A stretch of DNA of 5,392 bases from a virus. Taxonomy: Duplodnaviria; Heunggongvirae; Uroviricota; Caudoviricetes. Shown piece by piece: positions 3,001 through 5,392 of the stretch. Within the stretch, counting starts at the first letter, position 1; each line of letters starts with the position of its first letter. Made by a program: the position numbers. Location of the stretch: IMG/VR virus record IMGVR_UViG_2671181012_000008, positions 1-5,392 of that record; one strand, 5' to 3'.

Positions 3001-5392
3001 TGCCTTTGTTTCGTCATTACTGTCAGTATCACTGCTTAACTGCACCACACCTTTCTGCGTCGTGCTGGCATCCCGCTGGCTGACCGTATCCGGTTTGTTT
3101 TTTGTGCTGTAATCCACCCGCCAGTGGAAATACTGTGTGTCGCCGTAAACCGTACAGGTACAGACCGTGCCATTAATAAACCCCGTTGCACCGTATTCGC
3201 CAATGGTGACCCGGACTATGGCAGCCTCATACGTTCCCATCACCTCAATGACACAGCCACCCAGATTGAGTTTTCCCGGCCCGACATCCGTGATGACTTT
3301 ATTGAATCCCGCAGGCAGTGATGCCTTCATCATCCAGTAAGGCTGGTCAAATGCCCCTTTTTCTTTCAGCCAGGCGACAAACTCACTCGTGGTCCATTCA
3401 CCGGCCCCCGTATGAATGTCCCGCCCGTATACTCTGGCTGCTCCCACGGTGTTCAGAAACTTCACCTTATCCGGGATATCGTCACCGTTTTTCGCTTTCT
3501 CCAGGCATCCGTCCGCTTTGTCCATTGCCGCTTTCACCGCTTTCGGGGTGGCTGCCTTCGTTTCATCATCACTGTCCGTTGCGCTGCTTAACTGCACAAT
3601 TCCCTTCTGTGCCGTCGTCGCATCCGGCCCTCCCGGCTCACCTTTTTCGCCCTTCTCTCCCCGCTCACCTTTCACACCCTGAAGCCCCTGTGGTCCTGTC
3701 TCACCACGCTCACCCTTTGGCCCCCGCTCGCCGGTATCGCCTTTTGGCCCGGGAATACCCTGTGGCCCCGTGTCTCCCTTATCCCCCTTCGGTCCCCTCG
3801 CATTCTCTGCCCGTTTCTTCGCTTCCTCTGCACTCGCCGCTGACGCTTCCGCACGTTTCAGGATTTCCGCGGCCACCGCTTCCAGCTCTGCAAGGGCTTT
3901 CGGGTAATACTGTGCATCCTCCAGGTCCATCAGAAATTTATTCAGCGTTCCCGGTGCCGAATCCGCCTTCACCAGAATGTCACCCACATATGACGGCGCG
4001 TACCCTTCCGTGTTCAGCGTCACCCGGTACAACCCCGGCTCAACATCCATACTGTAACTGCCGGTTTCCCCCGGCTGACCATACGCCACCGTGGTGACAA
4101 TCACCGTCTCCGTTGTGCGGCGCGCTTTCAGCTCTATCGTGCATCCCGGTACCGGTTTTCCCGTACCATCCTTCAGCACACCCGATATTCTGACTGTCAT
4201 GGATTTCCCCCATAAAAAAAACCGCAGTACCGGTTTCCCGGCCTGCGGTAAAATTTGCGGTTTGTTGGTGTTAAAACGGTGCCATCCGGCTGACCACCCT
4301 CAGCAACCGGTCGGCGGGGGATATTCTCCCCCGCCACGGTTTCTTACTGCTTACACTGTAAGAACGCCGCAATCTCCGCGCCCGCTATCCGGAACCGGAA
4401 CTCGCACAGTGAAGTGTGGGTGATCCAGATAATGAGCACTACCGTGATACAAATCACGGTGGTTTTTAACGGTTTTTGCGACATAAACGCTTGCTCCTTT
4501 TACGGAGAGGCGCTAACCTTTCACTTGCTTAGGATGAATGGTCAGGCCTCGGGTTAAACATGAATGTTTGTCCGGGGCCTTTTCACATCCGGCCTTCAGG
4601 TGTTCCCTCCGGCCATCAGCCAAAGGCACCCGCGCATACTGTACGGTTTTTGTCTCCTTCCGGCAATCCGTATTCCGGCTGCCTGTCACGATCTCCGGGT
4701 AAAACCGGAATCTGTCGATTTCGCCACCATGAGAGTAAAGGCGTCATATCTCCACCGCACCAGCTCTCTCTTTCTCCCTTCCACATCCCCCATATTGCCA
4801 GGACCACCTTCAACTCTCATTGTCACTGTAATCCGTGTATCTCCCCCTCCTGCCACCACATCCCATACTCCTGAAACGGTGTCCCCGAGGTTGGTGTACG
4901 TGTTAACAGCATTGCCATTTCTGTCAAAACGACCTGAAAAACCCGTATCAGCAATTCTCGGTTCTGCCTTAATGACAACTCTTCCGTTAATCTCTATCGT
5001 CAGTGTTCCTGAATAGAAAAAGAAGGGAAGGAGTATCAGCTTGCGATCAAACGAAACATCATCAGCAAGAGATACCTCCGCCTTAAAGATGACATAACCC
5101 TCTCCATACTTGTGGTTCGTAATATGGAGCGTGCCATCACGAGGTTCGAAGGAATAGCCCTTGACGATATCACCGATGATTCTGTCTGCGCTAATGGTTC
5201 CTTTAACAACGCAGTTTTCTGCAATGGTCACGTTATTCAGCGTGCCCGAGTTCGCACTGATATGTCCGCTGATGTCAGCATTGCGGGCCGTCAGCCTGCC
5301 CTCCGGCGTCAGGGAGAACGTCGGGGGATTGCCGGACGAGGTGATGCTTACTGCAAACAGTCGCTTCAGGAACACATCGTTCATGAACAGCT

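Follow-up and report, generated by a model that had tools for sequence, protein, structure and literature searches.

A probable Sok-type antitoxin RNA gene, absent from current annotation, opposite the hok leader of a lambdoid prophage

The DNA analysed here is a stretch of 5,392 nucleotides (nt) of the virus record IMGVR_UViG_2671181012_000008 (positions 1 to 5,392), hereafter the window, whose plus strand had been proposed, from the sequence alone, to encode a Sok-like antitoxin RNA opposite the leader of a small toxin gene. Our results indicate that the plus strand between positions 4491 and 4586 is very probably a Sok-type antitoxin RNA gene, belonging to a type I toxin–antitoxin module of the hok/sok family. 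Homology supports the proposal, and we infer that the RNA is transcribed. This annotation is our main result, as a regulatory RNA gene is absent from RefSeq at the locus. The toxin gene itself (4344–4484, minus strand) is an open reading frame (ORF) of 46 amino acids, named Hok/Gef family protein in RefSeq (WP_000078854.1), whose product matches Pfam PF01848 (HOK_GEF) with 42.2 bits for a cut-off of 22 (E = 6e-11); by Pfam, this small ORF is a true Hok.

The promoter that had been described as TTGCTC-17-TAACCT can be read directly from the plus strand, with a -35-like hexamer TTGCTC at 4491–4496, a 17-nt spacer at 4497–4513 and a -10 hexamer TAACCT at 4514–4519, the latter being identical to that of sokW and retained in relatives of the locus. 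The candidate +1, G4527, sits 7 nt past the -10 hexamer. The -35-like hexamer lies in the spacer between the hok Shine–Dalgarno sequence (SD) and the hok AUG. An overlap of the promoter with both the toxin SD and the toxin start had been suggested; the first part stands, since the -35 covers 3 nt of the SD (GGAG, 4494–4497), whereas the start codon (4482–4484) is 6 nt away.

Downstream of this promoter, a Sok-like antisense RNA of approximately 60 nt is predicted at 4527–4586 (plus strand) from positional transfer of K-12 sokC and from RNAfold, with a 5′ end at 4527 plus or minus 1 and a 3′ end somewhere in 4583–4589. The approximately 17 unstructured nucleotides of the sequence-only reading correspond to 4527–4543, exactly 17 nt that are unpaired in the RNAfold centroid and would form the single-stranded recognition segment; the first 7 nt of the predicted RNA are complementary to the loop (4525–4533) of a stem-loop in the hok mRNA. 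The hairpin proposed at 4544–4580, predicted to double as terminator stem, was recovered when 4527–4586 was folded (-21.5 kcal/mol, z = -2.69; two of 200 shuffles fold equally well). It consists of nine outer and six inner pairs closed by a GAAU-type loop, and includes two U·G wobbles (4549·4575 and 4555·4570). Owing to the G·U pairs in its arms, this hairpin escaped an inverted-repeat search of the window. The expected UUUU end was likewise located, at 4580–4583, where the first U is also the last base of the hairpin stem; followed by CACAUCC, this run makes a weak intrinsic-terminator tail, comparable to the tails of R1 Sok and of SokB and SokC from Escherichia coli K-12, which are interrupted in the same way. 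The architecture as a whole, a single-stranded tail followed by one hairpin, coincides by position with that of experimentally supported Sok RNAs.

This positional agreement was established through the Rfam family RF01794 (‘sok’), the sole Rfam match in the window (4473–4631, E = 1.4e-10). The match lies on the minus strand, and could be taken as contradicting a Sok on the plus strand. This objection was dismissed, as RF01794 is a model of the hok-sense leader: in K-12, used as a control, the family matches the hokC strand (402–554 of the extracted stretch) and its match ends at the hokC AUG, whereas the curated sokC is on the opposite strand (453–511 of the same stretch). The orientation is identical at the hokW locus of the Shiga toxin 2 (Stx2) phage Sp5 (hok strand; 7651–7825 of the extracted Sp5 stretch). 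Sok is thus the reverse complement of roughly model positions 44–106. Through this model, the annotated 5′ end of sokC (model position 106) falls on G4527 of the window, in agreement with the start that had been placed near 4527, and its 3′ end falls at about 4589. Positions were transferred by covariance-model alignment, a global MAFFT alignment of the window, R1, sokC and sokW having put the -10 boxes out of register. The model is 157 nt long, about 2.5 times a real Sok RNA, and its matches give the wrong strand. The Sok of the window has remained unannotated because its RF01794 score is just below threshold and because the model is on the hok strand.

Strand-specific evidence comes from relatives of the locus, of which we collected 7 from GTDB genomes and 79 from IMG/VR; these yielded 50 unique leaders for the promoter and hairpin counts, 49 for the tail count and 54 for the search of mok (the leader ORF of the R1 system). 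Hairpins were compared by folding each sequence and by counting pairs in the outer helix. In every one of the 50 relatives, the Sok strand gives the stabler hairpin (mean -21.6 kcal/mol, versus -12.2 kcal/mol for the hok strand), because G·U pairs turn into A·C mismatches on the hok side. A set of 23 distinct hairpins, to which those of R1 Sok, SokC and SokW belong, contains 326 pairs; 52 of them are G·U, all A·C on the other strand, and U·G occupies the fifth outer position in all 23. When 20 distinct hairpins (19 relatives and SokC) were aligned, the outer helix of eight pairs was 100% paired, with compensatory double changes at two of its pairs (G-C to A-U and C-G to U-A), and none of the shuffles or slid registers attained the observed pairing and compensation. 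The helix is thus preserved as a plus-strand RNA structure, and its preservation weighs against the explanation that it is a mere mirror image of the hok leader.

The promoter is conserved as well. The -10 reads TAACCT in 48 of the 50 relatives and TATCCT, the R1 form, in the two others; the spacer is of 17 nt in 45 and of 18 nt in five. At the -35, TTGCTC (26 relatives), TTGCCT (8), TTGACT (5), TTGTCT (4) and TTGCCC (1) all keep the TTG, which is thus found in 44 of 50, and the remaining six carry TTTACT. Conservation breaks off exactly after the last T of the -10 hexamer, and the predicted +1 G is nearly invariant. In T1TAdb, a Sok is recognized by a TANNNT -10 upstream of the Sok hairpin (PMC8594479); such an arrangement is found here, in the form TTGCTC-17-TAACCT-7-G4527, with the predicted start inside the target loop.

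Flanked by the near-invariant -10 block and hairpin arms, the 5′ tail of the RNA (4527–4543) is the most variable block of the locus, with none of its 17 columns invariant and 25 distinct tails among the 49 unique leaders. Moreover, E. coli genomes hold up to seven places matching a 501-nt query (which includes the flanking ends of gpJ and of the tail-fibre gene). Tail variability suggests a diversification of antisense specificity among co-resident copies, whose variable recognition tails would constitute a natural system for the study of this specificity.

Two further observations concern the leader of these relatives. Immediately after the hairpin (4581–4592 in the window), otherwise near-identical loci carry one of two alternative sequences, CCTTTTCACATCC and CCTTCGTCTTTCC, of which CCTTCGTCTTTCC is identical to the K-12 sokB tail; the existence of two such forms suggests mosaic recombination in the leader. 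In a rearranged copy, IMGVR_UViG_2529293141_000015, the 5′ part of the hok leader (promoter and tac region) is swapped for unrelated sequence just beyond the Sok hairpin, and the Sok promoter, tail, hairpin and hok ORF are still present.

Several results nevertheless weigh against a Sok gene at this place. The full-length RF01794 match (model 1–157 onto 4631–4473) reaches 55 bits, versus a gathering score of 59. TTGCTC and TAACCT each agree with the sigma-70 consensus at three of six positions, and a consensus scan of the window called no promoter and no plus-strand terminator at the Sok-like site. The relaxed pattern TTG-N20-TANNNT is seen twice in the window for 2.4 occurrences expected, and because this frequency is at chance level the Sok-like promoter is not significant alone; the two occurrences of the pattern coincide exactly with the promoters predicted for Sok and for hok (the latter at 4638–4666, minus strand). 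Conservation of the Sok promoter hexamers is supportive and not decisive, because their complements belong to the hok target stem and to the SD region. The U-tract is only 4 nt long in the window and 3 nt in about half of the relatives, and termination may be leaky because of this shortness. The window also lacks mok, that is, the element on which Sok acts in R1, and the canonical R1 repression route via mok therefore cannot apply in this branch. Lastly, a literature search returned no transcript evidence for the window locus or its subfamily (transcripts of enterohaemorrhagic E. coli, Hok peptide sequence).

Part of these points would fit a locus that makes no Sok RNA, its plus-strand hairpin and hexamers being either mere complements of the hok leader structure or the remains of a decayed antitoxin, an explanation that we judge unlikely. 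The -10 has its complement, AGGUUA, within the target stem, and the -35 adjoins the hok SD, so that both would be conserved anyway, and the hexamers are weak and the U-tract short. As for decay, some chromosomal hok loci are degenerate (PMC2887945), and in K-12 hokA (NC_000913.3 3720448–3720632) IS150 sits exactly at the expected sokA/leader site, mokA being annotated as a pseudogene. A mirror image, however, is difficult to reconcile with the one to four G·U pairs of each hairpin, which are A·C on the hok strand and leave it weaker there by about 9 kcal/mol in all 50 relatives. Furthermore, position 6 of the -10 is an invariant T, although its complementary base takes no part in pairing within the predicted target stem and the bases that follow vary, and the same TAACCT drives a functional sokW (PMC8621323).

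Alternatively, the RNA could be made and serve the phage in the main, by antisense or transcription interference against late-operon read-through from J into the tail-fibre genes. The module does lie within the late operon, between gpJ and the tail-fibre gene and in the orientation of both, and the Sok promoter would fire against that transcription; on prophage induction, sokW RNA vanishes and HokW appears (PMC8621323). Yet the module has its own promoter and a strong terminator, has different neighbours such as lom in Stx phages, and is also found on plasmids; on these grounds it behaves as an autonomous cassette. As nothing points to any target besides hok, we hold a phage-directed role to be very unlikely. 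It is scarcely credible that the antitoxin would be another plus-strand RNA, overlapping the toxin start or coding region, for instance at 4439–4475. Such overlap with the ORF is known from the Ibs/Sib and AapA/IsoA antitoxins, but Hok/Sok loci have their antisense RNA on the 5′ side of the ORF (PMC8594479); moreover, scans of 4439–4475 gave no plus-strand promoter-like or terminator-like site, and the RF01794 alignment puts no homologous element there. The Sok gene at 4491–4586 thus remains the explanation that we favour.

The partner of this Sok would be a full-length hok mRNA of approximately 419 nt (4213–4631, minus strand), predicted from the start of the RF01794 model at 4631, from the fold and from a tract of eight U. 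Its candidate promoter, TTGCCG-17-TACAGT (4638–4666, minus strand), was found by pattern match 6 nt ahead of G4631, where the mRNA is predicted to begin, and its -10 retains the form TAnnnT in relatives; it occupies the 54-nt gap that separates the end of gpJ (4686) from the mRNA start (4631). The hok SD, AAGGAG (4494–4499), is paired in the predicted folds with an anti-SD CUCC (4505–4508). A target (sokT-like) stem-loop is predicted at 4507–4550 from the third hairpin of RF01794 and from a 3′-truncated proxy fold, where GAGGC (4546–4550) pairs with GCCUC (4507–4511) and leaves the loop at 4525–4533. In this model, the complementarity between target loop and Sok 5′ end would reproduce the R1 recognition geometry. 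U-turn motifs (YUNR) occur in the target loops and were not counted as evidence, the information content of this motif being too low.

The predicted fold of the whole hok mRNA (-183.6 kcal/mol, z = -7.3) includes, in its in silico minimum-free-energy form, a long-range tac/fbi-like pairing of 16 base pairs between 4615–4630 and 4278–4294; a tac/ucb-like alternative is offered by an inverted repeat (4574–4582 with 4622–4630). Folding also predicts a GC-rich 3′ stem-loop (4312–4336) and a terminator hairpin (4221–4249) followed by the eight U (4213–4220). This terminator is strong, with a stem of 12 base pairs, and ends 13 nt ahead of the tail-fibre start codon; it may affect read-through into the tail-fibre gene.

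Taken together, these elements lead us to propose the following mechanism. A constitutive sigma-70 promoter, TTGCTC-17-TAACCT, would start transcription at about G4527 and yield an RNA of approximately 60 nt with a 17-nt single-stranded 5′ tail, the 4544–4580 hairpin and a short U-tail, perfectly complementary to the leader of the hok mRNA (minus strand, G4631 to about 4213). The Sok tail would touch the loop (4525–4533) of the target stem-loop, which is expected to form only after the full-length hok mRNA has lost its 5′–3′ end pairing. The resulting Sok–hok duplex would block Hok synthesis, and would probably be cut by RNase III. On binding, Sok would pull the 5′ half out of the target hairpin, and the freed 3′ half (4507–4526) could then extend the anti-SD helix over the hok SD.

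This last step matters because of the missing mok. In R1, ribosomes must translate mok as far as the hok SD, and toxicity is lost when mok is cut short by premature stop codons (PMC9841398). In the window no mok leader ORF was found: counted from the hok AUG, the three frames are interrupted by stops at -47, -31 and -18. Among the 54 unique relatives, not one combines a start at the mok position (4–14 nt past the conserved GAGG) with an ORF that extends to hok, and in 38 no upstream ORF runs across the hok AUG. A mini upstream ORF, AUU...UAG (4539–4513), located at the R1 mok start position, was rejected, its start not being conserved in relatives. Instead, hok has its own strong SD (AAGGAG) in the window, and the predicted Sok duplex stops about 25 nt upstream of it. 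When 4527–4586 was blocked in a constraint fold, the freed 3′ half of the target hairpin extended the anti-SD helix over the SD; the same extended helix is also predicted in the closed full-length hok mRNA.

From these results we tentatively put forward a widespread mok-less branch, of prophages and plasmids, in which Sok would bind 25–90 nt upstream of an independent hok SD and repress by an RNA switch, and in which the hypervariable tail would act as a specificity code that lets up to seven copies coexist without cross-talk; as a whole this proposal is possible rather than probable. The anti-SD switch is our best guess from constraint folding. By analogy, a block of the ribosome standby site, as in tisB/IstR-1 (PMC4147584), or an RNase III-driven decay, as is partly relevant in sokW (PMC8621323), would be equally possible. 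If the mok-less proposal is true, Sok controls hok without the leader ORF held to be obligatory in the R1 paradigm, which would tie hok/sok mechanistically to systems of the tisB/IstR-1 type. Stx-converting prophages and other lambdoid ones commonly carry this branch.

Regarding its genomic setting, the window is 100% identical to the E. coli chromosome NZ_AP045178.1, with the gene order gpJ, Hok/Gef, tail fibre, and represents the tail end of an E. coli lambdoid prophage. All its genes are on the minus strand. Besides hok, they comprise the 3′ end of gpJ (from 4686), the tail-fibre gene (2464–4200), a gene for a DUF4376 tail-fibre assembly protein (tfa, 1729–2448) and a gene for an Eib-like protein of the YadA family (203–1354). 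The hok/sok module is a ‘moron’ cassette between gpJ and the tail-fibre gene. Being placed in the late operon beside host-range genes, it may, by analogy with hokW/sokW, affect lysis timing on induction. The protein of the tail-fibre gene (2464–4200, minus strand) displays collagen-like Gly-X-Y runs and one internally duplicated segment, and the Eib-type gene (203–1354) is downstream of it. The prophage hok locus was also retrieved on contigs labelled as a Planococcaceae metagenome-assembled genome, Vagococcus sp. and Xanthomonas pisi; these contigs with an enterobacterial prophage hok are probably the product of assembly contamination.

Catalogues of prophage Hok genes go back to 2010, and 14 such genes are listed for the Sakai strain (PMC2887945). 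A recent Hok census left Sok and Mok unanalysed, and the Sok ends predicted in T1TAdb await validation (10.1101/2025.08.07.668861). A detectable Sok, its instability, suppression of toxicity and cleavage of the duplex by RNase III have been demonstrated for R1 Sok and sokW only (PMC1635323, PMC8621323). When compared with known systems, the promoter of the window (TTGCTC-17-TAACCT-7-G) follows the geometries of R1 (TTGCGC-17-TATCCT-6-G), sokB (TTGCCG-17-TAAGAT-7-G) and sokW (TTGCCT-17-TAACCT). The window RNA (60 nt), R1 Sok (64 nt), SokC (59 nt), SokB (57 nt) and SokW (71 nt) all fold as a tail and one hairpin with a CCUCG/CGGGG stem.

The R1 system (hok/sok, or parB) shares most features of the window. 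In both, Sok is encoded opposite the hok leader, on the 5′ side of the ORF and behind a promoter of the form TTGnnn-17-TAnCCT, and consists of a tail and one hairpin, with a U·G pair in its CCUCG/CGGGG stem and an interrupted U-tail; the 5′ end of Sok falls within the target loop, and the hok mRNA has a 5′–3′ end pairing and a 3′ stem-loop (PMC1635323, PMC9841398). For this comparison the ends of R1 Sok were taken from the T7-template primers in PMC1635323, and the R1 leader used is 100% identical to thousands of plasmids. R1 Sok is described as a 64-nt RNA with an 11-nt single-stranded tail and one stem-loop (PMC1635323), whereas the predicted tail of the window is of 17 nt. The two differ further in mok, obligatory in R1 (PMC9841398) and missing from the window, and in the distance from the base of the target stem to the hok SD, about 9 nt shorter in the window; it is because of this shorter distance that the -35 of the window falls between the SD and the AUG. 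The Hok proteins of R1 and of the window are 39% identical over 33 amino acids.

Closer in setting is sokW of the Stx2 phage Sp5 (VT2-Sakai), which is prophage-borne and has a 17-nt spacer and an identical -10, TAACCT. No other close relative has had its Sok promoter probed by mutation: in a promoter-less construct, TAACCTA was changed to GAGCCGG and antitoxin activity was lost (PMC8621323). With the sokW promoter located by mapping the primers of that study onto Sp5, the -10 of the window is identical in sequence to a mutationally validated Sok -10. Both RNase III and Hfq contribute to sokW antitoxin activity (PMC8621323). Unlike the module of the window, hokW/sokW is located elsewhere in the phage (57.5 kb, near left-operon accessory genes), its Sok forms a longer, branched hairpin in an RNA of 71 nt, and an in-frame mokW ORF is annotated; HokW is 42% identical to the Hok of the window over 33 amino acids. 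In Sp5, the window locus has its homologue in a second hok copy, unannotated and adjoining lom (NC_000902.1 44545–44856), which is 78% identical and scores 35.6 bits against RF01794. This match was rejected as being hokW itself, as the primers of PMC8621323 map elsewhere in Sp5. Sp5 thus carries two hok/sok loci, hokW/sokW and this lom-adjacent copy of the window's subfamily, the latter with a better -35 (TTGACT) and an 18-nt spacer.

The K-12 loci provide curated sokB and sokC coordinates, which allow direct positional transfer. As in the window, the +1 of sokB is a G placed 7 nt past the -10, and the sokB tail CCUUCGUCUUU is identical to the tail of many relatives of the window locus; the 5′ end of sokC corresponds to 4527. 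The K-12 loci differ in having annotated mok ORFs, the first 9–11 nt of each being overlapped by Sok, and in scoring far higher against RF01794 (e.g. 118 bits for hokC versus 55 bits for the window). Outside the family, the antitoxins of tisB/IstR-1 and zorO/OrzO pair in the 5′ untranslated region at about 25–90 nt ahead of the toxin SD, and no leader ORF intervenes (PMC4147584). The window is alike in this respect, and the lack of an intervening leader ORF in all three therefore points to a standby-site or structural mechanism, or to RNase III cleavage (PMC4147584). However, the antitoxins of tisB and zorO are divergently encoded and of limited complementarity, whereas in the window the RNA is cis-antisense throughout, and toxin and leader alike are homologous to hok and not to tisB or zorO. 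By descent, the Sok of the window would be an ordinary member of its family; in mechanism, it would be a variant that works without mok.

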